DNA of 64,000 nt from Isurus oxyrinchus. Taxonomy: Eukaryota. Shown piece after piece: positions 18,076 to 64,000 of the stretch. The number at the start of each line of letters is the position of its first letter. Within the stretch, counting starts at the first letter, position 1. A model generated the notes under the pieces. The model did no database searches, was not told where the DNA came from, and saw nothing but the letters and a program-made list of their open reading frames with translations. Position numbers and translations under genes: made by a program. The stretch is taken from assembly GCA_026770705.1 (NCBI GenBank), contig JANJGN010000007.1:96968001-97032000 (forward strand), in the 5' to 3' direction.

Positions 18076-18138
18076 TTTTAGCTGTTTACTTTTCTGATGT
18101 CAAAGTTAAGATTTTTCTTTTCATTTTCATTTTCCTAG

Positions 18139-18442
18139 TTCCACCAACTCCACTGAAAAATAATTATCAGCCACCTGAAAATGTTTCATCAGCGGCCCCT
18201 GCAGTTCCATGCTCATAGACTCCTTTTACCTGAAGAATATCAGGTTTGCTTAGTACAAGGATGACACCAAAACTACAACAGGGACAAAGGTCACGATGAA
18301 ACCCAAGAACGATATGCAGTACTATGTTTCTTGTGGCTTTCAAGAGGCGCAGATTATCCAGCACGGAAATGTTAATTCCTCACAGTGCACTCAATATTTC
18401 TCAATGCCTATGCCACTCCGATTATCACCCACCATAACACAG
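18139..18442 (+). pseudogene. IgSF C1-set exon 1 (pseudo) of the decayed gene copy
   Basis: Acceptor tttcctag| then (V)PPTPLK...FYLKNIRFA*YKDDTKTTTG...YYVS, ending at donor ag|gtaaga. The FYPxxIxxxW motif has Trp changed to TAG; frameshifts present. Confidence 0.8.
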
Positions 18443-19543
18443 GTAAGAATTCTGACAGAACCAGATAGTCTGAAAGTACATTCTATCTGGAACCCAAGTG
18501 GGGCCTCTGTGGAAACGCTTTCCTATTTAGTGTAATGCAGCGCCTTATTTGCAAAACTGCAAATTAGCCACTTTCAGGAACATATTTAACTGCCTTTGTT
18601 AAATGTTACAACGTAAGGTGCTCTCTCTGGATCTTCCTAACATATTGCTCCTCAATTTCCCTCTATTTTTCGATGTATTTTAATTTTAGCTATGTGAACT
18701 TGGTTAATGTATACATTTACAAATTGAAATAGTTCCACCTTACTCGATCAACACTTCAAAATGTTATTTCCTTCTCTTCCGTAGCCCTCTGATCTTCATT
18801 GCGTAATGGAGAAACCCTAACTTCTCCCAGGGCTCCAAGTAGATGAAGGCATTCATTCCTGAAATCCTCTCCTGCCGCCTCGTCAATGTCAAGGCTTCTT
18901 TGCTCTTCTGCCATGCCCATATTTGAACATGGCACTGCGCAATGGTCTAACCAGTGTTTTTTTTTAATAGAAAGTTTTCCAAGGACTCCTTTCTTATATT
19001 TTCACTCTCGCTATCAACCGTTAGTTATTCCAAGGAACACCTGTAATCACATTATGACTTTGCCCTACCGCCTTGAAAGGCTACGGAATGTGCCCTCTGA
19101 GATTCGACTGCTTTTTCCCCAAAATAATGTTGTTTTGACTATGCTAACTCACGCCATTGTTACCCGCATTGTATTTCCCCTCTTTTGCTTCTGACAAATT
19201 CGTCATGCTAAACGTGTAAGCTTCAAGTCTGCTGCTCTGTTCCACAGGTCATGTTCCGCAATATTGCTTTCATCTCCGAACGCTTAAATTATCCGCGCGA
19301 TGTTCAAGTCCATCCCTTCACCTATATCACCGAAAGCATTCGTGGCACTATTAGGGCGTGCCGGACCGGATATAATGTCCGCTCTTATAAATACCTTTCT
19401 CAGTTTGAAGCGAATCAATAGGCCACAAACGATTTTTTTTTAAAAAAACCTCCACCACAAGAACTCTTCCCCCACCGAGTTCTCTCGTCATTAATGTGCT
19501 GAATCATATCCGCTGTGCTAGTAGTTTTTCTCCCCCTACTCTT

Positions 19544-19834
19544 TTCCGTCAACTCCACTGAAAACGAACTCTCAGACAAGTGAACATGATTCTTGCCACG
19601 TATTTTGACGTTATTTGCATGACAATTGGGAATTTGGGTTTAATTTGGTATAAGGATATCACCAAGGCCGCAGCACGGATCATTAATATTGTTCACTCCG
19701 CAGTTAGATTCTATGATCCTTCCAACTTTTGCAAGACGCATAATGTATGTCGGAGCTATTAATACTCCCTTGGCATCTCAATGTACCCTCCAGGTTTTTG
19801 CCGTGTCAATCACACATTCATGCATTCCAACAAA
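19544..19834 (+). pseudogene. IgSF C1-set exon 2 (pseudo) of the decayed gene copy
   Basis: PSTPLKTNSQ...VICMT...LGLIWYKDITK...FYDPS; acceptor lost. Paralogous to 62621-62929. Confidence 0.7.
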
Positions 19835-37465: not shown

Positions 37466-40010
37466 CTTATTATGCCATAGAAAGGTCTCTGTCACTCCTT
37501 TAGCTGCAGACAGAGGATAAAATGCTACACCTATTCTTAATTCTGCATCTTCCCCTTCTCTTTATAGGGTTCAGCGGATCCCCAGGATACAGCAGAGATT
37601 GTACCTTTTTCCTATTCCACTAGGGGACAAATTTAACTTTGGTTTCTCTAAAATTTTTTACAACTTTACACGGACATTGTTGTTTTCCTTCTAAGGCTAA
37701 ACTGCTTTATAGCACTTGTACTAGCATCACTTGATCAACAATTGTTCAGGGCATAGACGATCATTGATGAAGTTAAGAAAATTGAACAAATGATGTTGGG
37801 AAATAAAAGGTGTGAGTGCATCCAACAGCAACACAAATCAATTGGGAGCGCTTCAATTAAATAGTTCAATGTGTTAGCAGTATACAACCCATTCATTTTT
37901 TTGTCAGCATGGATGTAAAATAATAACTTTTGCTTCGAAATGGGAGCCTCCTTGCCTACAACAAACATATGAATACTTGTAATCATGTTCCACAGTGAAG
38001 GCAACCCTTGAGAACTAAAACAGTGATGGGTAGAGCTAAAACGATAAGGAAAAGAAAGGGGTGATGTGTAATTGGTTCTATGTTACAAGAGCTGTTTGTG
38101 CTGACGACAGAGAGAGAGAAAAAAGAAGGGTACCCCTAGGGAGTTAATAAGTACTGGTAGGCAGGAGCAGAGGAAATGTGCAGTTTCATCAGTTTGATGG
38201 TTGCTATAGGTGGAGCCTTCAAGATCCCTTTACTTCCACCACTGTGATTTGAAGATTTGTTTAGAATATGGAGGTTTACATCGTTAAGTTAAGGATAAAG
38301 GACTATAAGTACATTCCTCTAAATATGTTTGTTTGTGTGCAGTTAAGGATTTTTTTGTGAGCTTTAAAGTGTTTTATTCTGTAAATTGCCATTTGTATGT
38401 GTAGTTACGCAGTTTAGGTTTGAAAGCCACATGTTAGATTAAAGGAAAATGTCGTAAAACATTCGAAAGTTTTAAACATAAGATTTGAGTTGAGATTACT
38501 GGCAAAAATAAATCTCAATTTGAAGATATCATGAAGCTAAACAGGGTAAAGATGAACCGACATTTGTACCACCCTTTTGTAGACTAGCATCACCAGTGTC
38601 CAAACAGATTGGGATCGACACAGACGAGTTGCATTAACATATCCACGTTAGTATTCAAAAACTCTGAAGGAAAAAGAAAACCTGAAATTCAAAAGGATTC
38701 TAGGAAACCCAGAAGACATAAACAAATGATCTACGTGATTCCAATGGATAAAAGAGGTTTCTTTTGAAGAGATGAATTAAATATGATAGGAAATCTGCAA
38801 CCCAACAGCACTGTAATTTGAATTTGGGACAATCTTGAAATGTAAAGTGCCGTGCAATTTAACTACGATGCTATCCAAAGGTAAATAATGTGTCGATAAA
38901 CGTATGGGACTTTGAACCTGGATACAAATCATTGCACGTGAAGAAGAGGTTGTTTTAATTTTGATAGTGTAACTTATATATCTCACAATGTTTGAAATTT
39001 GACGTTTGGTTCCTGATAATTGCTCAAAAAGGAATTTTAATTTTAAAAGGGTTGGCAACAATTGACACTAATTCAAATGCTGCAAGCTTTTGTATTTTTA
39101 AGCCTGTTCCCACAATATGAAGCTAAGCTCAAGGCCTCGGCAACGTTTGGTAGAAATCAGATTTTTGGCCGTGTTAATGAATCTGGGACAATTCTAAAAT
39201 AAACGGGTCAGACAGAATTTAGTGGGTTACTTTTGAGACAATAAATTGCTGTTTTAGAAAAAATTAAGGAAGCAAAACATTTCAAGGCTTCATTTCTATT
39301 TTTAAAACTGTTATGAGAATATTTTATTTATTTTAATATCCCTCCAGGCTGCCTGAACAAGATGGCATCATAATTGTTGCATGTGTTAAATGCTATGAGG
39401 CAAATAGGTGAAAGAGTAAGGAAAAGAGGACAAAATGTACAAATATTTTTACGGCAAGTGAATTTGATAATCTGGTCTTCAACTGAAAAATTGGAAACGC
39501 ACAGGGGGAGATAAGCAAACATCTAGGGACAGAGATCTTCATTGACACGCAATTGTTAATGTGGCCTAAAGAGCACGGAAATATTATAAACCATAAAGAT
39601 AATAGAGAAACTGACATCAAGAGAATCTTAGGATGATCATGGTCAGCGGAAAAGAAAGTAGAGGTAAAACTATGTGGAATCTATAGATCAGAAATTGAAA
39701 TGTAAGGAGAAATGATACTTAACAACTTACCACAAGATGGATATAGGTAAAGGGAAAGCTGGGAAAAGGCTAAATAGATGTATTACTGATTGTATTAATA
39801 TGCCTGCGAGCAACAAAACGTAAACCCACAGGATTAACGTTATGATGAAAGACAGAGTTAAGTGGCTCCCACAGAGAACCGTCACAGGGAGTTAAAAAAA
39901 CGGAGCCATTGAAAGATAAGATAAGAAGGTGCATTGTAGAGTTCTGTAGGCAGTTTAAGGAATTGAAGTCCGACGTGGGACAGCAGCAAGAAATAGTAGA
40001 CTGGAAGGAG

Positions 40011-40280
40011 TGGAGGGTGCCTATCCAGATGGATTCAGATTAGGGAACTCATTTCACAGGAACAATAATTAAATAAATTTAAATCCACTTCTCTACCAAC
40101 CATAGAGCTCGGGGATGATGGAAAGCATGAACTGAACTTTAAAAAAAAAATCATTGCAAAAGCAATTCAAGAGAAAGGGAACAACGCAATATTCTAATGC
40201 GCCTAACGTTAACCCAAGCAGAACGACCAGGTTCACCTCGTTTGAATTATTGATAGGGAGAGCAATGTAGATACCCGAGG
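40011..40280 (+). pseudogene. pol: Retroviral integrase core, C-terminal half (ERV1)
   Basis: WRVPIQMDSD*GTHFTG...YQP*SSGMMESMN*TLK...TRFTSFELLIGR, covering the second D to the E of the DD(35)E core. Confidence 0.8.
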
Positions 40281-40575
40281 GGATCACGGAAGCAGCGGGA
40301 GACGTAGGACCACTAAAAGGAGGGATGAGAGACTATGTGAGTGAAATAAGTAAGCAATTGCATGAGTTAAGGTAAAAAGTCAGAGACAAACAGGTGATGG
40401 TCAAGGTGAACCTGGAGCGAACATACGACAGTGATACTGTCAATTATGACAGTGATACATGCGCACTTGAAGATATAAGAACGGTAAGTAAATGGATGCA
40501 CTGCACACAGTTAAAGATGCATGACAATTGACCAAGCCGTAACCCGGAGAATGTTAATGTCTCCACAGATATAAC

Positions 40576-42530
40576 ATGCAGGTCTTGGGTGTATATATGC
40601 TGGAAACAAGGTCGGGGATCATCACTGCTCATCCCACAATGCAGGAGGCAATTTGGTACAGAATGAACAGTGCCAAATGCGACATGCAAAGCGGAATAAT
40701 AAAGGTAACAGTTGGAGAACACGTGCTTTTAAATTATAGTAACGGTTTGCATCAGGTCGGGCGTGGGAGTTCCACCCAAAAGAGAAGGTTAGTGCCACTA
40801 CCCAGCCACCTCACACCTCTACTTCCACAGTTCGAGTAGAGATATTTGAAGCCTCAGAAACCACGCCAACCGACCCTCCTTGTCCAGCCATGTATCCAGG
40901 GCCGACAAATTGTCTCGTATTGATCAATCAAAATAAAGTTATATATGATAATGTATACCATGAGCAGGTGCCATAGTCTTGAGCGTATCCGTTTTCGCCC
41001 TCCCCAATGGTGCTCAACCCACACCCAAGCAGTTTATACAGCTCTGACGGATCAGTTGATGACTGAAGCAGTTGCATTGAATGGCGAGCTGCGATATGGC
41101 TTGGGTGGAGTGGGGGTTGGAGGGGGTGTGGGGAGAGGGAGAGGTGGGGACCACGTTAAGAGCAGCCTGATAAATGATGTGCTACGATAGTCAATACAGG
41201 GACATCAGTGATTGATTCAGAACCTAGCAACTGTTGATCAGAAGTTCCAGACCATGAGCTCTAAGCATAAGGAGATTCGACAGCAGGGACAAGGAATTCA
41301 TAACACAAAATTAAACACAGACCAGGACATGGCACTGCTAATCCAAAACCTGGCAATTGTGCTCGAAATTCATGCGGGTTCTAGCAATAAACTGATTACA
41401 ATAGGGGAAAATATTTCAGACGAAACAAGTAGAAATGATATTTGCAACACATACGGATCCTGGGCTCTTGTGAAAACCTGAAAGAATTTAAGACAGATTA
41501 ATGAAGGGCATTCGGCACTGTCCAGGCTGTACCAAAGTTGCTTTATGGTTAATTAATAACATTTATGTAATCTTTCACGACACAAGGATCATGACTTGAC
41601 TGGCTGCCATCTCAGAGGTTTAATATACATATATAGAATGAATGTTAAATGTATAGTAAATAATGATATGCTAATTGCCTTAGTGATACCTGTTATATCT
41701 ATGTCAACATCCGGCAGGACATTTTATATAGTAGAAAATATTGGTGTAATATGGGGGGGATTAATATATTAAGTCCCACGATATTCCACCATATGCAGCA
41801 GACGTAAAAGTGAATACAGTTAGCACACATTAGAAGAGTGTAGAATCGAGGCCACCGCAGTAGTATGACCACCCCCTATATGAGATGGAAGAAGTGAAGT
41901 GGCGATTTTAAACAGCAGCAAACTGTGGAATGGAAACTATATAGGCTGCAAAGGAACCGAGCAATGTTGCAGACACGGGGAATGGGAGATATTGCATCAC
42001 CATATGGCAGGAAAAAATCCAGTATGGTTGCAACTGGATATGCCTCAAACACAATCATTTGGTGTACCTACACCCACAGGTGCTGGCAAGGGTGGGAAGG
42101 TGGAACTGGTTGAAATATACAAGAGAGGAACGACTACTATTGAGGTCATGGAAAACCTTAAAGAAAATCTGACACAGTATCTGTACCAGTTCTCCTACGA
42201 AATTACTATGTTACTAGAGTACATTATCGTGATTTGGAGGCAGACTCAACAGATGTACAGAACTCACTATACACTGCAGCAACAGGTTAGATCCTGAAAG
42301 GAGGATATCAAACAAAAAGATTATTTCACATGGTGGGATGACCTGTGGAACTGGCGCTCAAACGTACAGGTACATCCCTGGAATCGGAATATCTCCCATG
42401 CCCTAGTTATAATTCAACTGATATGATTATCTGCCTTAAACAGTTAATTCACCCACCCTGAAGAGACAAAGACGGTAGCGCTGGGGTTGTTTCAACAGAT
42501 GGAGAAGGGATTTAGCAAGCCAGAGGCCTG
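40576..42530 (+). pseudogene. env: env pseudogene (ERV1), class I fusion glycoprotein with F-like subunit proportions
   Basis: Acceptor ctccacag| then ATG at 40576. Degenerate basic cleavage site followed by SLINDVL..NTGTSVIDS.NLATVDQKFQ and a heptad. LIALVIPVIS..FYIVENIGVI, C-terminal heptad, WWDDLWNW and TM ISHALVIIQLI follow. Stops and frameshifts. Confidence 0.75.
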
Positions 42531-42686: not shown

Positions 42687-43229
42687 TGTTCTGGGGGAAT
42701 AAAGCGGTACAGTAAGAATTTATTTTCAGGGAATGCTACTGTTGGAATCTCCAAGCAGCCAGTGCCTGCAAGTACATTGACAGTGAAAAAGCACCAGACG
42801 AACCTTATACACTCTTGGGCTTTCTACACCCTGAGGGTTTGAAATCACCAGCAAGGACCTGGGAGTCAGACTGGGGACTTAGTTTATAAAAAGAACATTT
42901 AGGTTTGAGCCTATTTACCGCAGATAGGGAGAGAACAGATGGTCCCAAATTAGACAGGAAGGAACGTCTCTCCCTAGGCGAACAATAGGGACATACAATG
43001 CATGCACCTGTTACCAGAGATGTCTTTTTAATGTAAACATATATGTTGACAAGATCGGAATCTGGAAACTGTTCTTGTACGTGACCAATAATGTATAAAT
43101 ATGTTGAACACTTGTAATTTGGCAGAGTACTGTCTCATGCTGTATTGAGGTAGTGCTCTCCTTGCAATTGCTCAAATACATGATCGTACCTGAGACTCTA
43201 GCGGTCCTTTTATCAAAGTGACCACAACA
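42687..43229 (+). repeat. 3' LTR of ERV1
   Basis: Preceded by PPT-like AAAAGTGGCGAC (42675-42686). Starts TGTT and ends ACCACAACA. TATAAA at ~43095. Similar to the LTRs at 52611 and 58134 (TTGTACGTGA.CA, CTCTC.TTGCAATTG). Confidence 0.85.
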
Positions 43230-52610: not shown

Positions 52611-53093
52611 TGTTGTGGTAGCTTTGACAAATAGACCACAGGACGCTCAGGTATAGACCACAATCATTTATTCAAGCAATTGCAGGGAGAGACCCATCTT
52701 AATGCAGCTTGAGATAGCACTCTATCAAACTAAAAGCATACAGATTATTTTATGCACTACTGATCACGTACAAGACCAATGTTCAAATTCCAATCTTGTC
52801 AGCATATAGGTTACGTCATACATATTATTTCATGCCAGCACAGACTTCTCTGACTATCCAGGTTGGGGACATCTGTCCTTTCCTTATCTCAACAGAGCAT
52901 ACTTAGTCTCTGTCGTTGTCACCCTCTGATTCCAGTCCGGCTCCCAAGACCTTTCTGTTTTTTGCAGGCCGTAAGGATGTGCAAAGTTCTTCTCGCAACC
53001 TTTTGCTCTTAATATGCTTGATAGCACTGGCATCCTGGTGATTTTATGTATTTGCATCTTTTTTTATAAATGTTTACTGTATTTCCACGAGGA
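52611..53093 (-). repeat. 3' LTR of ERV2
   Basis: On the minus strand it ends ...TACCACAACA, carries AATAAA (~52667-52672) and is preceded by PPT AAAAGGGAGGAC (53094-53105). Confidence 0.9.
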
Positions 53094-53249: not shown

Positions 53250-54680
53250 TCAGCCTTCGGGCTTTGTAAACCTCTTCTCCACCCGTTAAAACCCCCAGCG
53301 CCACCTGTTTTGCGACCTTCGGGTACAAGTAATTAGTTTTATTAAATATATAACTAGTATCAGCTGAATCACAGCCAGCACATTGGAAATTATTGGAATC
53401 CACGGATGTATTTGTAGGTTTGAGCCCCAATTCCACAGAGCCCCCATCTTGTGGAGGGATGTATTTGCTCAATATACTCTTTCAAGTCTCTAAACTGTTG
53501 TTGCAGTTTACAGAAAGATCTATACATCTGCTCAACCTGTGCCCGAACTGTATTTATTTGCTCTGATTAGGGGTACGTCCGATAGCTCCCGTTCTGGATC
53601 TTTTGCTGCCATGCGGTAACACATGATCTGCCATTCCTCATACATGCAACGTGAATCGGTTCTTTTGCAGCCCTGATAGTTTTTATTGTACAAGTTGATG
53701 CTGCTTTAAACCCGCACCTAATTTCCTCCATCGCATATGTTGGATGTGCGCATACTACTGCAGTAGGCTCCACACCACACCCTTCTCATGTGTTGCTAAC
53801 TCTCTACCCTTCTATGTCTACTGCATATGGTGGAATGTCATGGTACTTAATATAGTCATCACGCTGTATCACCACAATATTTTCTACCCCATAAAATTCT
53901 AACGGATGTTGAGATACCTATTAGTGGCTTCACTAAGAAAATGCCTATGAACATATATTTCTTCACTATTCATGCGACATTTATTCTACATACACGTGTC
54001 AAATCTCCGAGCTGGCAACCAGTCAAGTCATGATCCTTACTTCAGGCAAGTTTAAAGAAATGCTCATTTGTTACGCATAAAGGAACTACCCCTTCATTAA
54101 TCTTTCTTAATTCTCTTTAGCATGTTCTAGTGCCCAAGTTCCACAAGTGTTACAGATATAATTTCTGCTGCTTCAACTGAAATATGTTCTTCCTATCCCA
54201 ATCAGCATATTGATGCTCCCCAAATAACCTTCCATCACGGTAGCCAGGTATTTATTTAACCAAATCGTGCCCTTTTCTGTTTTTAATTGGGTGTTGTGAA
54301 TTCCCTGTACCCGTTCGAAAATTTCCTGATCCTTGGAGCTCAAGGTCCGGAACTTCTGGTCAACAGTAGCCCGGTCAATAGAATTAACCATTGATATACC
54401 TGTAGGTATCATATCCCCAGCATTCCCGCACCCAATTTGAAGCAAACCCTTGCTACAATTCAAAATCACTTTTTATTCTACTGTTACATTTAGCATTCCC
54501 CGTTGTTCGGCACTGTCCGTGCTGTACCAAAGTTTCTCTGTGGTGCAGAGGGAGGCGTGCTAATCCCTGGACTCGCTGCCAATATCACCATGCCCTCGAG
54601 CTTTGACGTTGTGATCAGCATTCTGACAATATAAGCAGATAACCATCCCAGTCATAACCAGTAATTTCTTGAGGTTAGTT
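53250..54680 (-). pseudogene. env: env pseudogene (ERV2)
   Basis: TGISMVNSIDRATVDQKFRTLSSKDQEIF..QGIHNTQLKT and LWNWGSNLQIHPWIPIISNVLAVIQLILVIYLIK align with ERV1 env. Acceptor ctctccatag| at 54690-54681. Confidence 0.8.
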
Positions 54681-55029
54681 CTATGGAGAGAATCCATTTA
54701 AAAAACCCTTACCTTGTGAAGACTGCTTTCAGCGCCCATTTCCCCTAAAGTCCATGCATGCACATGTGTCGCTGGTCATGTTTACTGCAAATGATCCTAC
54801 CCACTTTTGTGCAAACCCCATTCGTTTTGGGTTGATCTTAACCATCACATTGGTCTGCGCCTGTGGGATGTGTTATTGTCTTTCGTATATATGTGTTTCC
54901 ATGTCCTTAATCATCTGTTGGTCCCTGACTTCCTTCCTTAACTCTTGCAATTGTTTACTCTTTCACTGACATAGCATCGCACCCTTCCTCTTAATTTTCT
55001 ACATCGCCCACTCCTACTATGATTCTCTT

Positions 55030-55340
55030 GGCTAACTGCATTGCTGCTCTTGTCATTCGTTGAAATGCAGTGAATGGGGCGTTTCAGCTTGTGGTAGCCC
55101 TAAGGCCTTCGGAATATTGCGCAATCACAGTTTGCCGAGCTGTTCCCTGTCTTTTGAATTACTTTAACTGCTAATTTCATTTTTAAAGTTCGGTTCTTCG
55201 TTTCCAACATCCCCAAGCAGTGTGGATGGTAGGGAATGAGGAGTTTCTGCTAATCCCCTTAAACTTAAACATTTCTATAATGACTGTTCCTTTGAATTGA
55301 GTTCCATGTTTTGAATCCAAATTGGTACTCCCCCCCAAGC
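55030..55340 (-). pseudogene. pol: Retroviral integrase core, C-terminal half (ERV2)
   Basis: GVP..LDSKHGTQFKG..IPYHPHCLGMLETKNRTLK. Confidence 0.8.
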
Positions 55341-58112
55341 CCCCAACTTATTCCAGTCTACTACCTCCTGCTGCTGCTGTCCCACGTCGGATCTAAACTC
55401 CTTAAACTGCCTACGCAAATCTACACTACAGCTCCTTATCTTATTTTTCGAAAGCTCGATACCATCACTTCCAGTAGCGGTTCTCGCTCGGAGCTGCTTA
55501 ACTCTGCCTTTTGTCATGATGTTCTTCCTGTGGTTTTACATTGTTTTAGATTGGAGGCACATTAATGTAATTATTAATGCATCTGATTAGCCTTTTTTCC
55601 AGCTTTCTATACACATGTATTCATCTTCTGGTGAATTATTGTTAAATATTAGTTCCCTTACGTTCAAATGCCACAGTTACAGATTCCACAGAGTTTTGAC
55701 TCAAAGTTGTTTTTTTTTTTCCTGACCAGAATCATCCTAAAATTCTCTTCAGGTCAGTTTTTCTATTGTCGTGATGGCTTAAAATGTTTCCTTAATCTTG
55801 AGGCTACATTAGCTATTCCATGTCAATGGGGATCCCTGTCTCTAGATATTTGCTTATCTCCTCATGTGAAGTTCCAATGTCTCAGATGATGGCCAGTTTA
55901 TCAAATTCAGTTCTGTTCCCAGCGTGGGTGCTGACTGTGACCTAGAGAGATCAGGAGAGTGAGAATAGGATAGGGCGGGGAGGGGGAAGAACGTGAAGGA
56001 GTGTGGGGGTTAGAGAGAGGGTGGTAAGGAGAGATCAATATGCTGGTAGATTAGTAACTAAATTAACAGGTTAAAGCACTCAATGGAATAATTTTGCAGG
56101 CCTTGATGCAAGTAATCACAGTCATGTCTCTGCCACCCCTCCCCAAGAATATTTCTGATTTTCTTTTTCGCGTTTGTGCATTTTGTCCTCTTTCCGAAGC
56201 TCTTTCTTTTACTTTCCTCATGCCATTTTACACATGCAACAGCTACCATCTTATCTTGTTCAGCTTGTCTCGAGAGTTTTTACAGTCCAACAAAGTATTC
56301 TCATGACAATCTTAAGACAAAATACAGAATTGACATGTTATGCTTCATTACTTTCTTGTCAAACAACATCGTATTGCCTCAAAAGTAACCCACTACATTT
56401 TAGAATGATCTCAGATTCATTAACTCGGCCAAAAATTGGGTTTGTGCCAAACTTTGTCTAGGTCTTCAGCTTAACTTCATATTTTGGGAACACACTTACA
56501 AATATAAATGCTTGCAACATTTAAATTAGTGCCAGTTGTCAAAAAACATTTAAATGAAAATTTCCTTTTGACAACTTTATCAGGAAACAAACCTCACATT
56601 TTTAAATTTGTAAGAACTGTAATTTAAGTATCAAAATTGGAACAACGTTTTACTCATTTGTATTGATTTGTATCCAGATTAAATGCCCGGTATGCTTATC
56701 GACACATTCTTAACCTTGAATTGCATCCTAGTTATTTAAAAATGCCCTTCTAAATTACACTGCACATTACATCTCAATGTTGTCTCAAATTCAAATGACA
56801 GTGCTGTTGGGATGCAGATTTCATTTCGTATTTCATTCTACCATTCAAACGCACCTCCATTTTACCCACTGGAACCACATAGGCCGTGTGTTTCTGTCTT
56901 TTGGTTTTCCTAGAATCGTTTTGAGTGTCAGCGTTTTTTTCTCACAATATTAGAGTACAAACTCCTATGAGATAATTTAACTCGAATGTAGCAATCCCAT
57001 GGATAGCTTGGATGCTGGTGATACTACGATGCACGGGGTTGGTGCAATGGTTCGTTCATCTAACACTGTTTTAGATTTCCAATACCATCAAATTGCGATT
57101 TCTGCCCGATATTTCAACCCAAACCGTTTACTCAGTGCTTCTGAATGTTTGAGTGTACATTGCGTTTAAAATAAAATAGGACTGTCGACTCGAAGTACAC
57201 ACACAAATTACAATTTAAGGAAGAAAACACTTTCACATCTTGCACACAAGCAAACACATATATAAGCGTCTGCATTTATATACCTATAACATAAACTTAA
57301 GGACTTAGAGCTCTCATACTCAAACCGAAATTTCAAGTAGCAGTTGTGGGGAGGGGAGTGGGGGGAGGGGGGGGTCGTATTGGAGGATTCAAGGGTTCTT
57401 GGAAGCTGTACCAAAGGGGCCAATGAAGCTGACTGAAGGTCACATTTCCTCTGCTCGTGTATGTCATTGCTGATTGACCCCCTAGGGGTACCTCCTTCTC
57501 TCTTTTTTTTCTCTCTCTCTTCAGCAGGAACAACGCTTGTAATTTAGATCAATTCAGTTTATTAAGTTACAAAAAAATCAATAGGAGACCTATTGTGTCC
57601 GAATCATCCTTCCACATTTTCCTGATTAATTTTGATCGTTCTTCCTCCATGAACCTCATAGTTGGATCCGCAGCACCCCATTCGATTTCGATAACAATTT
57701 ACTGTTCTCCTGACCGCATTCTATTCATCTATTCCTACCTCTTTCTGAGCAGTTAATTGGCATGACTCAGAGACATTTGTCACTTGCAATTTGTCCAGTC
57801 TACTTATTGCACGAGGGATCTAGCCTCCCTGTAGGGCTTCGGCTATGTTTTTGATTACTACCGTAACCCGTCAGCACGGTTCTGCCCCCTATCTTTGTAG
57901 TTGTCCGGCCTCCCTGCGCGGCTTTGGCACCCCTAGCCCACCAGCGTGGCTCCGCCTCATACCATGGCGCCTGATGTCCTGATTACCCCCCCTCGCCGAT
58001 TCTTTTGATACTCGAACAGACATTCTCGGCGAGGCATACCGCATTAACTACAGTTGGAAAATAAAACATACTCACCCAATTTGCAGAGCTGTCCCGAAGA
58101 TCTGATCCAAGT

Positions 58113-58133: not shown

Positions 58134-58614
58134 AGTTGTGGAATCTTTTATAACCGTACCTCAGGAGGCTCAGATACTTGTCATGATCGTTTATTCGATC
58201 AATTGCAAGGTGAGAGCAATCTCAAGCAACTTGAGATAGCAGTATGCCAAATTACAAGCATACAGCTTTTTGTATAGAATATTGATCACGTACAAGAACA
58301 ATGTTCAAATTGCAATCTTGAAGGCACATAGGTTACATCATACCTGCTCGTTCACGCTGGCAGAGACCTCTCCCTCTTTCTAGACTGGGGCCATCCGTCC
58401 TTTCCTTATCTGTTGAAGAGCACACTTCATTTATGTCGTTGTCATCCTCTGGCTCCAAATGTTTCCAAGGCATTCCTGTTGGGTGCAGGCCCTGCGGTTG
58501 TACAATGTTCATCTGGTAACATTTAACTGTTAATGTGCTTGATAGCACTGGCTGGCTCGAGATTTTAAGTAATTAATTCCCTTTCAATACATTTTTAAGA
58601 TATATCCCCTAACA
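58134..58614 (-). repeat. 5' LTR of ERV2
   Basis: On the minus strand it starts TGTTAGGGG and ends CCACAACT, with AATAAA at ~58190-58196. Homologous to 52611-53093. Confidence 0.9.
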
Positions 58615-59622: not shown

Positions 59623-59788
59623 GTACCTATTCCTTTTACAGGTTGATTTCTCACTAAATCGCACATTTATATAATTTTCATCAATTCATCATGTTTTGTT
59701 GTCTTTCGGACGGATTAAGGGACTCACGTAACCTTTCGGTTTTTCTGCTGTAATTTTATCTCACACAATCGGATTTGATTTTCTGAAG

Positions 59789-60106
59789 GCTCCGGTCAGA
59801 ATTCGGTGACTGTAATACAGATTCCTGAGAACATGAACCGAAGAATGGGTAGGAACGCTACATTTGGTTGCTCTCTTCCTTTCATTGAAAACGGTGCAAT
59901 TCTTTATGGACGCTGGTGGAAAGAGGGTGAAAATCAATATTTACGCCCGGAGCAAGATTTCAGAATAATAACTTTCCCCAGCGTATCCGGCGGCATCCTT
60001 CATATAATCAATGCAAGTTTGCAGGACGTAGGTATATATGATTGTACTATGACCAATCGAGGCACATTTGTTGGAAACGCAACGGGGTCCAATTTATCTG
60101 TATCGG
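59789..60106 (+). CDS. Intact IgSF V-set exon with a germline J-like G strand (SIRP/NKp30-like architecture)
   Basis: tttctgaag|(G)SGQNSVTVIQIPENMNRRMGRNATFGCSLPF..YGRWWKEGE..LHIINASLQDVGIYDCTM..FVGNATGSNLSVS(G)|gtagg. B-strand Cys, C-strand Trp and DxGxYxC are present; phase 1-1; no stops. Confidence 0.88.
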
Positions 60107-60221
60107 GTAGGTTTGGAAAAAAAAGAGAGAAGGAGTTGTCGGTAACTAGTAATTCGCACTTTGAAGCTTTTCTCGTTTGTGCTTCGAAAGGTGTGCATTG
60201 CAACAGAAGGTATTTTTATTT

Positions 60222-60360
60222 TTAGTCATCCATAGGATGTTAGCAGACGAACATGTGTTTCCCATCCGTAATTATGCTTGAACGGAATGTCTTGATCGAT
60301 CAGTTCCAAGAGCAGTTAAGAGTCACCCACATTGCATTTGGACTTGAAGTCACATAATTG
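60222..60360 (-). mobile_element. tRNA-SINE family 3' part in the V-C1 intron
   Basis: CATAGGATG..CCCATCCGTAATT..GAGCAGTTAAGAGTCACCCACATTGC. Confidence 0.6.
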
Positions 60361-61205
60361 CAAACGAAGTCGCGCCGACTATGCAGTGTCCATTGTTTTA
60401 TGCGCATGTAATCAAATTGCGACTTGGATCTCCATACTTAATATTCTATTACCTGTCACATCATCTCAGCAATATTTATCACGATAAGCATTATCTGTGA
60501 GCAGTCTAATCGAAATTACAGAGTTATCATGTTGTGCAGTACCATAAAATGTTGCGCATATATTTACTTTATTGATTACGAGTAAAGATTCTGCCAGTCT
60601 GCACACTGATTTGAACACATTTGTTGGTTTATTTTATTACTTTGGGTAGCGAATTATAAACGTTCCTTCTAGGATTCTGATTTGCGCATCTGCAACTTAA
60701 TAAGTTTTGTGTAAGGTCTTTGAAGGTCCGTATTACTAACAAACAATGCCTGCTTAATCACGAATCCTATATGTTCATTTGATCTCCAATAAGTAAGGGA
60801 GCATGTTGAATATTGATGTCACTTTCAATTCACCGTTTCGAAAAGGAGGAGGTAGGCAATCGGACACCAGTTTATAACCCTCCCTATATTATTTCCGAGG
60901 CGAACAACAAAAGTGCTGTCCTGATAACGGACGGCCCATTTACTAGCACCTGTCGTTAGTCAGTTGATTACTTCAAATTGCCCTCAATTTACTTTTATAA
61001 AGATTGGCTCTAATTAATATTTATAAGGATATTACTTTGAATTTAGGTACCGAAAGCGTGCAGAAAAGATCTTTGCTTAAAGCCCGCCACCGGTATCAGT
61101 CCCCAATGACTCACTGTGATTAACAATGGCCTGGAATAAAACGTTGGGCTGTTAAACTTGTCCAATGCATAAATGAAGATTTTTTCTTCCCTTTCATTTT
61201 CCTAG

Positions 61206-61510
61206 ATCCACCAACTCCACTGAAAATTAACTCTCAGCAACTTCTAAAAAATCAGCTGCATCTCTTTCTCTTCAATATAGAACATCTCTCTATTTCCCCA
61301 AGGACATCAGTTTCACTTGGTCCAAGTATCAAAACTACAGCAGGGGTACATACCACAATTAAACCTAATTTCGATGGACTATATCAAGCTTAAAGCTGGT
61401 TACAGGAGACGCAGGCTATCCAGACAAGCACTATTTATACCTGCCGGTAGCTCACAGTACCCTCCAAAATTCAGCATCGGTCAATAACGTTGTCATCTAT
61501 CCTAACAATG
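61206..61510 (+). pseudogene. IgSF C1-set exon 1, disabled
   Basis: tttcctag|DPPTPLKINSQ..YFPKDISFTWSK..DGLYQA*SWLQETQ..IYTC.VAHSTL. Frameshifts, an in-frame TAA, loss of the B-strand Cys and an apparently mutated donor. Confidence 0.85.
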
Positions 61511-62620
61511 TTAACAATTTTCGTAGGGGAATAATATTTGAAAATACATCTGATCTGTTATGCCAGTACGGGTTCTTTGGAGTTTGTGTTTAACTTAGCT
61601 TCACGACGTAGGCATTTTACTTATAGTTCTGTAAATTAGTTCTCTTCAACTACACATTCAACGGCCTTTGTTGAAATGTTCTATGTGAACTGCTCCAACA
61701 ACTTTCTGGATCTTCCCAACACACAATGAAAAAATACTTCTCAAATTCCCTGTTATTTCTGTTATTGCCCAATTATTTCAACTATGTGACTGCCGGTTGT
61801 ACATTTACACTGCTTCCTCTCAAAGCCCTTCTTTTTCGTAGCCTTAATACTTTCTGTTGTAACGTGAATATCCCAGATTCTGCAATCACTCTAAACAGCA
61901 GGAGGCGTTCATTGCCCTAAGCATCATTAATACATTCACAACGGTCTTGACATCCCTGGTGAACTCTCTTCCCAACTTGGTGATAGTAGTGGAGCTGATA
62001 ACTTTCCAGTGACTTATAAAGTTTAGCATCACGCCCGTGTTTTTTTAAATTTAATGTCGCTATCTGAAAAGTAAATTAATTGCAGGAGCATCCGTAATCT
62101 GATTATGATCTTTCCCTGCCACGTTCAAATGCTGCTGAATGTGAACCTTGATATTCGACTGCTTTTGCCTCAAACTATTTTTTTTAGATTCTACTACCCC
62201 TCCATGTTTTCTCAGACGATGACCACATACATTAAGTTGCACCGACATTCTGCCTGACCATTTCGTCAGTCTATGTCATTATGATGGTTTGCAATGTCTT
62301 TCAAACTCCGAACTAAGTCGCCATCACAGCATTTTCTATGATCCACAAAATTCTGCTCGATATGTTCCAGTCCAACAGCTTTACATGTACCAAGCAAAAC
62401 GTTGGTACTCATAATTATATAGGAGAGACACGATATAAATTTGACCTTTCGAAATATACTGCTCAGTTTTCAGCTACTGGTAGAGCACAGTGAAAATCAC
62501 TGCACAAAATGAACCTCCCTCACCGTCACCATATCGTCAAGTTAGGAATGAACTGAATCACAAGACAGAGTTGCTAACGTTATCTTATCTCCAAGAAACA
62601 TTCATTTCCTGTGCTCCGAG

Positions 62621-62929
62621 TTCCACCCGTGCCTCTGAAAATCAACTCTCAGCCATAAGAAAATGATGCCCCTTCGTTTGTTACTTATCTTTTCATGGCA
62701 TCTCCCTTTTTCCCCCCCGAAGAATGCCAGTTTCACGTGTTATAAGGATGCCACCAAAACAGGAAAAGTGATACTTATAATTTCTCACCCACTAACCAAT
62801 GGATGATATGAAGATTCTAGAGGCTTTCAAGGTATCCAGGCTATCTAGACACAACTACTTATACCTGCATGGCAACTCACAATACTCTCCAAATTGCAGT
62901 TATGTTCACTCATATTGCCTCCTCTCCAA
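62621..62929 (+). pseudogene. IgSF C1-set exon 2, disabled
   Basis: ag|(V)PPVPLKINSQP*..KNASFTCYKDATK..NG*YEDS..TYTCMATHNTLQ..|gtaag. Stops and frameshifts. Confidence 0.8.
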
Positions 62930-64000
62930 GTAAGACTTCTGATATAATAATAGAACCTTAAAGGACAATTGGTCGGACATACCGGTGCATTTAATTGAAA
63001 TAGGTGCCTAATTTAGTCCCTCACCACAGCTTGTTACTTATAACTCGACAAATTGTTCTTCTTGAAGCAAATGTTCAACGCTCTTTAATCAATTTTATTC
63101 CTTATCTTCTCCCAGTTGGAAACTTTCTGGATCATCCCAACCCTGCATGAGAACATGTATCTCCAATTTTTCCAATGCATTCCTTTACCAGTGTATTCGA
63201 CTGCTGGTTATGCATCAATGTATCTCTATAATCTTTTATAACCTTACTCACGCAATTAGATGTCTTCATAAATATATTTTTCCCTCTATAGGGTAGTCTC
63301 TGAATATTCCTCGTTCTACGAGAAGATCACAACCTCTCCGATCTCTCCAAGTCACAGGAATGCACATCCCTCTGAACTTCCTCGATTCCACTCCATGTCT
63401 CCTCGTCCTTGTTATACTGTGCAGCCCACAATTGGGCATAATAGTTGACAGATGCTTAGATCCTGATTTCTAAATTTTTAGGATGACTTCGTTGGTTTTG
63501 TATTTCAGATTACTATGTACAAATTCATTTCAACCAATGCGCATCCATAGACACCTTGTGTTCTTGTCCTACCATCTGTAAAATCTAATGATAATGCATA
63601 CGCAGTTTCTACTGTTTTTGCTTATACCTGAAAAAAAATATTAATTTCATTTCACTGCCTCTGTTGTTTAACCCAAAGTCTGCATTTCAAATGTATTCAC
63701 ATTAAATAATAATTACGATGCTTCCAACCATTCCATTAGTCTATTTGTGTCATCCTGAAATCCAAGACGGTCTACAAAACCTGAATCATCCATTGTTTCT
63801 ATCATGAAGGATCTTTGGAACTGCAGTCACGATATTCCAGCCAAATTCCTTGTCGCATATCCAATAAAGCATTAGTCATCACATTGATTCCTGGGGGATT
63901 CCCAGTGATTATGAGTGTCCTGTTTAAAAAAGAAACATTTGTGGATCACAACTTTTTGTCTCCTTGATTATAGCTATTCACCTGCAGAAGGTGCCTTATT

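Follow-up and report, generated by a model that had tools for sequence, protein, structure and literature searches.

Fossil copies of a shark retrovirus of undescribed type lie in the 64-kb stretch of Isurus oxyrinchus DNA analysed here (hereafter the window). We consider it very probable that the two elements of the window, ERV1 and ERV2, are dead and lack a polymerase, and that they derive from a shark endogenous retrovirus (ERV) family with two hallmarks: a reverse transcriptase (RT) that belongs with the retroviruses proper, likely near snakehead retrovirus (SnRV) and apart from the lokiretroviruses, and an Env of the predicted paramyxovirus F type. As part of this reading, the host likely kept the env of one family copy under selection elsewhere in the genome (contig C40), and a distant relative of this env, on contig C11, has likely turned into a gene of sharks. 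These two captured-env candidates matter more than the window copies, which are ordinary fossils.

Two decayed elements in the window

The window contains two related, decayed LTR elements at ~38.0-43.2 kb (plus strand) and 52.6-58.6 kb (minus strand), whose DNA is ~70% alike. In each, a broken env follows a region X of 1.35 kb and a set of duplicated integrase C-terminal remnants (Table 1). A first-pass annotation, made from the sequence alone, had described two proviruses with a decayed env. Both elements and their env remnants are real, but ERV1 has only a 3' LTR, and no partner of this LTR was found upstream anywhere within the window. In blastn and tblastn comparisons with full-length copies, gag, protease, RT and RNase H were undetectable in ERV1 and ERV2, and only the integrase C-terminal remnants of pol were recovered. 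Region X, with more than 1,200 candidate copies in the genome, showed no match to gag or pol. No tRNA genes were found in the 64-kb window.

Table 1. Features of ERV1 and ERV2 in the window, with the basis of each assignment
Feature	Position	Strand	Basis
ERV1 5' end, family leader remnant	37989..38086	+	blastn to full-length copies
ERV1 region X, 1.35 kb, in the place of the pro-RT-RNase H absent from the subfamily	38100..39450	+	1,240 candidates, best 40 scored at 77-85% identity; same position in 12/12 fetched copies
ERV1 duplicated, decayed integrase C-terminal remnants	39762..40516	+	tblastn to shark-clade Pol P0022, E 5e-20; 74 bits vs 28.5 to loki-type Pol
ERV1 decayed F-type env with the subfamily-wide N-terminal-domain deletion	40576..42530	+	tblastn to P0001, break counts, predicted fold of P0001
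ERV1 3' LTR (TG...CA), purine tract just 5'	~42687..43229	+	
ERV2 5' LTR; decayed primer-binding site downstream of it	58134..58614	-	LTR pair 73.6% identical, K2P 0.32
ERV2 region X	56173..57548	-	68-70% identical to ERV1 region X
ERV2 integrase C-terminal remnants	54693..55912	-	
ERV2 decayed F-type env without F2-like strands and cleavage site (ends approximate)	53250..54620	-	tblastn to P0001 skips from residue ~81 to ~292
ERV2 3' LTR	52611..53093	-	

Two observations concern other parts of the window. Near ERV2, an exon-like frame at 59779-60225 (plus strand) gave weak matches to immunoglobulin domains (Ig_3 E 7e-5, V-set E 2e-4) and probably belongs to a host receptor gene. Related repeats with a spacing of ~1.4 kb occur at two distant places, 18113-19592 and 61180-63168.

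A non-autonomous subfamily and its complete relatives

At the DNA level, 1,006 candidate relatives of env were counted across the genome; the best 40 were scored and are 76-86% identical. All 12 region-X copies fetched were devoid of pro-RT-RNase H in an identical manner, and eight of them retain gag remnants. Since this absence is alike in every copy, the window elements belong to a non-autonomous, polymerase-less subfamily of a large shark ERV family with more than 1,000 candidate copies. The subfamily would have lost pro-RT-RNase H together with part of env, and its copying in the germ line was likely carried out by the enzymes of complete relatives.

An RT-containing full-length parent had been proposed as a target for a genome-wide search, and full-length kin with RT are indeed present. 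Their LTR pairs differ by K2P 0.03-0.23, and 4-bp target duplications were legible in five of six inspected copies. Natural open stretches of these copies matched the Pfam families RVT_1, RT_RNaseH_2 (tether), RNase_H, rve, protease (weakly) and two zf-CCHC; the parent virus would have had the layout LTR-gag-pro-RT-tether-RNase H-IN-env-LTR. In the copies inspected, env is followed by the purine tract and the LTR within ~200 nt, which leaves no space for accessory genes, and no smc gene, which is optional in lokiretroviruses, was seen there. Just inside the 5' LTR lies a primer-binding site (L078, L080, L082, L086, L088, L092) that we take, from its look, to be complementary to a serine tRNA. 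Absolute dating was dropped because the two rates used in the literature consulted differ tenfold.

Several side observations were made among the genomic relatives. At least two further ERV families carry a homologous env with ~20-39% identity to P0001, the intact copy described below (L188-L209, L212-L217). One further env-bearing family is characterised by LTRs of 1.25 kb and includes copies that lack pol but retain an open stretch of 602 codons, and in another the env lies downstream of an RT from a different retroviral subclade. Many similar RT-bearing copies were found on small contigs (G000:C44, C59 and C213; L066-L077); the one fetched (L094/L095) had no env within the stretch. In one copy, a ~33-nt unit is tandemly expanded within the RNase H region (L096:6500-7500).

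The window env genes compared with an intact natural copy

The decayed env genes were read against P0001, the unbroken 727-codon env frame of a natural copy on contig C40 (G000:C40). It was the sole stop-free match covering the whole 446-residue query among 114 matches from the best 95 scored of 4,166 candidates. The N-terminus of P0001 is hydrophobic, a furin-type site occupies residues 284-287, 18 cysteines are present and a transmembrane (TM) helix lies near residues 690-715. P0001 contains neither CXXC nor CX6CC and matches neither TLV_coat nor another retroviral Env family of Pfam. A gamma-type Env was rejected on these grounds, in line with the first-pass annotation, which had seen no CX6CC motif or immunosuppressive domain.

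The proposed start of the ERV1 env at the ATG at 40576 was confirmed. Likewise, the order of parts described downstream of the cleavage site was borne out by P0001, in which a fusion-peptide segment of weak hydrophobicity is followed by a long helix, a beta core rich in Cys, a second helix, a segment rich in Trp and, finally, the TM helix. Decay, also recognised earlier, amounts to 16 frameshifting indels and 6 stops over 537 aligned codons in ERV1, and to 6 and 5, respectively, over 386 codons in ERV2.

Two points of the earlier description have to be revised. The ~190 codons ahead of the putative cleavage site of ERV1 had been compared to a short F2, but this length is due to an internal deletion of about residues 74-166 of P0001, whose own pre-cleavage part comprises ~283 residues. 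Furthermore, the basic motif of P0001 is not present at the site proposed in ERV1. The comparison with F2 holds otherwise: the F-like fold of P0001 begins near residue 205, ~80 residues ahead of the cleavage site. According to tblastn, the ERV2 env lacks about residues 82-291 of P0001, cleavage site included. Both deletions recur in the family, as 28 of the 47 env copies classed carry the ERV1 type and 4 the ERV2 type, next to 12 full copies and 3 unclassed ones.

The predicted Env fold resembles paramyxovirus and pneumovirus F

Searches by sequence assigned this Env to no F family. In Pfam, neither an F family nor a retroviral Env family was matched by P0001 and eight window fragments, and 34 homologues gave one weak Baculo_F match only (E 0.0011, in one homologue); the PDB, searched by sequence and by profile, yielded no F family either. 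A word-indexed protein search with Env returned 0 of 7,902 candidates. By HMMER, 34 Env relatives were found among proteins; 20 were looked up, and the 19 with a name comprise 17 from sharks or rays and 2 from frogs. The nearest relatives come from Mustelus, Heterodontus, Chiloscyllium and others, in agreement with the cartilaginous-fish host suspected from the letters alone. Env-like homologues are also annotated in frogs (P0180, P0198, P0202; Pelodytes, Xenopus tropicalis), and a 723-aa Pelodytes protein looks complete.

Single-sequence AlphaFold prediction of Env was unusable (pLDDT 34.5). The model of P0001 used here is based on a 106-row alignment of relatives and stop-free natural stretches from three families. 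The monomer reached a mean pLDDT of 61 and a pTM of 0.49, with high values over most of residues 200-600 and an unusable prediction over residues 1-198. Foldseek against the PDB yielded 251 matches with E<=0.001; the 40 that were listed all belong to F proteins of paramyxo- or pneumoviruses (RSV, hPIV3, NDV, Nipah, PIV5). For RSV, hPIV3 and NDV F the E-values were 2e-11 to 6e-10 (best 2.2e-11), with TM-scores near 0.3 by query length. Using VIA-align, nine F proteins ranked first with Z 12.4 to 8.5 and large rmsd, among them NDV F at Z 12.4 (377 residues aligned at rmsd 17.9) and HMPV F at Z 9.5 (285 residues at rmsd 6.7). Foamy Env followed below the F proteins with Z 8.3 (rmsd 10.0, 299 aligned) and 6.9, and unrelated helical bundles scored Z 5.9 and lower. 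The matches listed from BFVD include lispivirus and baculovirus F, the Env proteins of WEHV-1 (E 1.3e-10) and WDSV (6.9e-8) and feline foamy Env (1e-5). In the ESM Atlas, the top match (0.93) was a cluster with Fusion_gly on 21% of its members. Taken together, the predicted fold supports the F-protein-like Env that had been proposed from the sequence.

The likeness to the F proteins of NDV, hPIV3, RSV and HMPV extends over residues ~205-665 of the model and comprises F2-like strands, the cleavage site, a long first helix, beta domains, a second helix and the TM segment. In contrast to these proteins, with which it shares ~10% identity, the shark Env is encoded by a retrovirus, has ~200 additional N-terminal residues and possesses a weakly hydrophobic fusion segment. 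By prediction, the shark Env works like F: after cutting at the furin-type site, the trimer would insert its exposed peptide, the two helical repeats would refold and the membranes would fuse.

For the N-terminal domain (residues 1-198), the best Atlas match was 0.76, and Pfam returned nothing in three family members. N-termini of relatives gave, below threshold, V-set at E 0.0024 (a Logan relative) and Ig_3 at E 0.16, the family's own N-termini gave no Ig match, and that of the solitary C11 gene matched antibody V-domains of the PDB at E>=0.11 only. The domain may be Ig-like, and these ~200 residues, attached through a Pro/Thr-rich linker, could perhaps supply receptor binding.

An open env copy among histone genes

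P0001 is encoded in a provirus of the window's family at G000:C40:8.927-8.935 Mb (minus strand; L031/L032), which lies among histone H1, H3 and H2B genes and combines a broken gag-pol with the unbroken env. Judged from codon changes and breaks, this env shows purifying selection and is probably a captured host gene. A competing explanation accepts the virology as described here but takes the C40 env for a chance survivor or a late recombinant, so that only the solitary relative would have been domesticated. We regard this as unlikely, although it deserves more weight than the other alternatives discussed below.

Chance has some room, as thousands of candidate copies exist and C40 was chosen because it is open; at the rate of the least-broken copy, 724 codons would stay free of breaks with a probability of 0.007. 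Over the length of the C40 env, ~16 breaks would be expected at the median rate of the other copies and 5 at the lowest rate. In addition, the provirus is old, as indicated by its LTR divergence (K2P 0.167 over 417 columns) and its ruined pol, which contains 8 stops in 735 projected codons and ~8 frame changes. Among the best 95 scored of 4,166 candidates, no copy covering most of the query exceeds ~84% protein identity, which argues against a late recombinant or a chance survivor.

The pattern of substitutions points in the same direction. Measured against the commonest codon per column, the C40 env has a high synonymous divergence (pS 0.215), with a nonsynonymous one (pN 0.038) among the lowest, and its pN/pS of 0.18 is the lowest in comparison to 55 others (median 0.39, range 0.25-0.58). 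Counting single changes only, the ratio is 0.13 versus a median of 0.34 (Fisher p 4e-6). Restricted to transversions, it is 0.37, compared with 0.97 as the median of 53 others (Fisher p 0.025), with one other copy lower (0.25). The pol of the same provirus has a pN/pS of 0.38-0.75, with stops. The cytoplasmic tail of the C40 env is ~22 residues shorter than in other copies.

The insertion is shared with a related organism represented by two DNA runs, in which a 1,507-nt contig crosses flank and LTR and is ~3% different. An env piece of this organism has 2 differences in 290 bases versus ~3% in the flanks, again at odds with chance survival; no contig spans env. In one contig of single-copy depth, the sequences on either side of env are joined directly (the shorter side measures 27 letters), and this joint counts in favour of a chance survivor or late recombinant. 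No RNA data set was listed as containing the C40 env, and short presumed-RNA contigs were not assignable to one copy; neither informs on expression.

A solitary env-like frame with a bamboo-shark counterpart

A 765-codon open frame at G000:C11:34,566,575-34,568,869 (minus strand; L210/L220) is 24% identical to P0001. No pol, gag or direct repeat was found within 37 kb of it. The C11 protein and GCC29952.1 of Chiloscyllium punctatum are identical at 633 of 734 positions (86%) without any gap. Because copies of the window's family carry many breaks at like divergence, two open, gap-free frames indicate selection. The best relatives of C11 in the genome are broken (39-55% identity), and one of the four checked lies downstream of pol remnants. 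We therefore consider it very likely that C11 is a domesticated F-type env gene, and by analogy with other captured env genes its likely functions would be cell fusion or receptor blocking.

Captured env genes such as the syncytins, percomORF and the shark syncytin-like candidates have several traits in common with C40, C11 or both: an env frame that stayed open while its provirus decayed or disappeared, purifying selection, and conservation between species. Unlike the F-type shark genes described here, those genes are of the gamma type and carry both CX6-7C and an immunosuppressive domain. In the accessible part of its report, a syncytin screen of 36 chondrichthyans is described as using syncytin queries and requiring the immunosuppressive domain and CX6-7C (10.64898/2026.05.06.723177); captured F-type env genes are thus undetectable by it.

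Placement of reverse transcriptase and integrase

The F fold is common to foamy Env and the predicted Env of walleye epsilonretroviruses and therefore identifies neither lokiretroviruses nor any other virus group. The family was instead placed by its enzymes. Against the PDB, the shark RT scored 136.7 bits with foamy virus, followed by MLV (115), HIV-2 (79) and Ty3 (76). The best integrase match by sequence was also foamy virus, "best" being relative here since the PDB covers few retroviral genera. The nearest database Pols, including Mustelus and Heterodontus records, are 59-60% identical. No RT relative was found in viral contigs; metagenome contigs gave 80 loci at 25-39% identity, and a screen of the first four for env-like frames listed none.

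A careful, gypsy-rooted RT tree of 35 rows was built, the rows being chosen from the 81 of a quick tree, which agreed. The tree is anchored by one distinct loki-type sequence (P0015), labelled by motif match and not by database name, and contains no named SnRV or foamy row; class I-type rows were labelled by Pfam domains and motifs. P0015 split off by itself from the remaining retroviral rows, as their sister (100/98), and the shark clade (99/95) fell among the latter, its placement within the retroviruses having 83-92% bootstrap only. A class I-type clade (100/99) excludes the shark rows, by which a class I (gamma/epsilon) ERV was rejected, and ERV-L-like rows fall in another subclade than the shark clade. 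In the RT alignment of PMC7947760, read by eye in its accessible part, the shark RT resembles SnRV with ~43% identity. Its identity to the loki-type RT is 39%, so the gap between the two values is small. Together, tree and alignment suggest a family apart from the lokiretroviruses and likely near SnRV, the SnRV likeness coming from the alignment by eye and lying outside the tree.

A shark foamy-like ERV would accommodate the PDB matches of RT and integrase and the resemblance of the model to foamy Env, which is known to share the F core, but we consider this identity improbable. The few genera in the PDB make those matches relative, and the Env model is closer to paramyxovirus F than to foamy Env. 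The shark Env is also shorter (727 aa, including a short hydrophobic signal at the N-terminus, versus ~980 aa), has an extra domain N-terminal to the F2-like strands, and leaves no room before the LTR for accessory genes. Moreover, the shark Gag carries two CCHC zinc knuckles, which to our knowledge tetrapod foamy Gag does not have. The spacing before YVDD, compared by eye in the accessible alignment of PMC7947760, is SnRV-like rather than foamy-like.

The first-pass annotation had favoured loki-like retroviruses and, with them, a possible extension of the known loki host range to a shark lineage. The hosts it named agree with the accessible text of Wang and Han (2021, PMC7947760), in which lokiretroviruses are reported from lampreys, bony fishes, amphibians and reptiles, with an Env related to Mononegavirales F, an RT sister to other retroviruses and an integrase closest to CGIN1. 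The shark family shares with this description a dual RNase H, the LTR-gag-pol-env layout and an F-like Env that comprises a signal peptide, the RxKR site, a coiled coil and a TM segment. However, tether and RNase H are common to all retroviruses and F-type Env is not loki-specific; the shark Env, furthermore, has no Pfam Fusion_gly match. Forcing the shark clade together with P0015 cost 36.6 log units (AU p = 0.0007, one anchor), and the window integrase remnants score far higher in pairwise comparison with shark-clade than with loki-type Pol (Table 1). The motifs PLSRWP and PFGYxN, which loki RTs show in the accessible supplement alignments of PMC7947760, are absent from the shark RT; in a screen of 153 stored RT matches, only P0015 and its cluster-mate P0050 carried them. 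A genome query with the loki-type RT gave at most 43% identity among the best 150 scored of 19,198 candidates, which is not proof of absence. In addition, six chondrichthyan assemblies in Table S2 of PMC7947760, as far as accessible, stand without the asterisk that apparently marks loki-positive genomes. Loki membership thus fails on RT, its defining feature, the host-range extension is not supported, and we give the loki identity very little credence.

Ty3/gypsy errantivirus-like retrotransposons with an F-type env, a type widespread in metazoan errantiviruses according to the accessible text of 10.1101/2023.10.26.564294 and compatible with the baculovirus F matches of the model, are next to impossible here, given the tether and RNase H, the separation of the gypsy rows at 100/100 and the lower RT score of Ty3 relative to foamy virus (76 versus 137 bits).

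Discussion

The closest known viruses are likely the SnRV-related ERVs, which are fish and shark retroviruses outside gamma/epsilon and foamy groups, match the shark family in RT and RNase H motifs (by eye) and are known from cartilaginous fish. As far as these sources are accessible, such ERVs are reported in the elephant shark (CmiERV lineage I; Han 2015, PMC4422223) and define clade Huo (Xu et al., 2018, PMC6001957). The accessible parts of both papers make no mention of an F-type Env. In the literature covered, which was mostly open-access, neither shark retroviruses with an F-type Env nor the capture of such an env by a host were found to be reported. Likewise, the accessible portions of 10.1101/2023.10.26.564294, PMC12440569, PMC10435555, PMC11521997, PMC13709493, PMC12583693 and PMC12813294 contain nothing on this shark family.

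Other retroviruses share the fold. Foamy Env shows the F core, while orthoretrovirus Env is put in a separate subclass in the accessible part of Fernandez et al. (2024, PMC11468914). The BFVD-predicted Env models of the walleye epsilonretroviruses WEHV-1 and WDSV match the shark Env model at the E-values given above, but these proteins have 1,160-1,320 aa and belong to viruses of the class I group, outside of which the shark RT falls.

A broader reading, to which we give even chances, is that sharks domesticated F-type retroviral env at least twice, once as the solitary gene shared with bamboo sharks and again in a younger capture from the window's family. The products would serve as fusogens or receptor-blocking antivirals unrelated to the syncytins. 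On the same reading, F-type Env with a variable, maybe Ig-like N-terminal module would be ordinary in a broad radiation of shark and amphibian retroviruses and, together with the loki, foamy and walleye viruses, would point to an ancestral retroviral fusogen.

In its accessible text, PMC7947760 leaves four scenarios for the origin of retroviral Env open. The presence of F-type Env in several shark lineages that are not loki and apparently not foamy, and in relatives from frogs, makes the scenario of an ancestral F-type and a later gamma-type Env testable with many natural sequences. For the hosts, env screens based on syncytin motifs miss the whole F-type class, and vertebrates may have a group of host genes, captured F-type env, that has so far gone uncounted.
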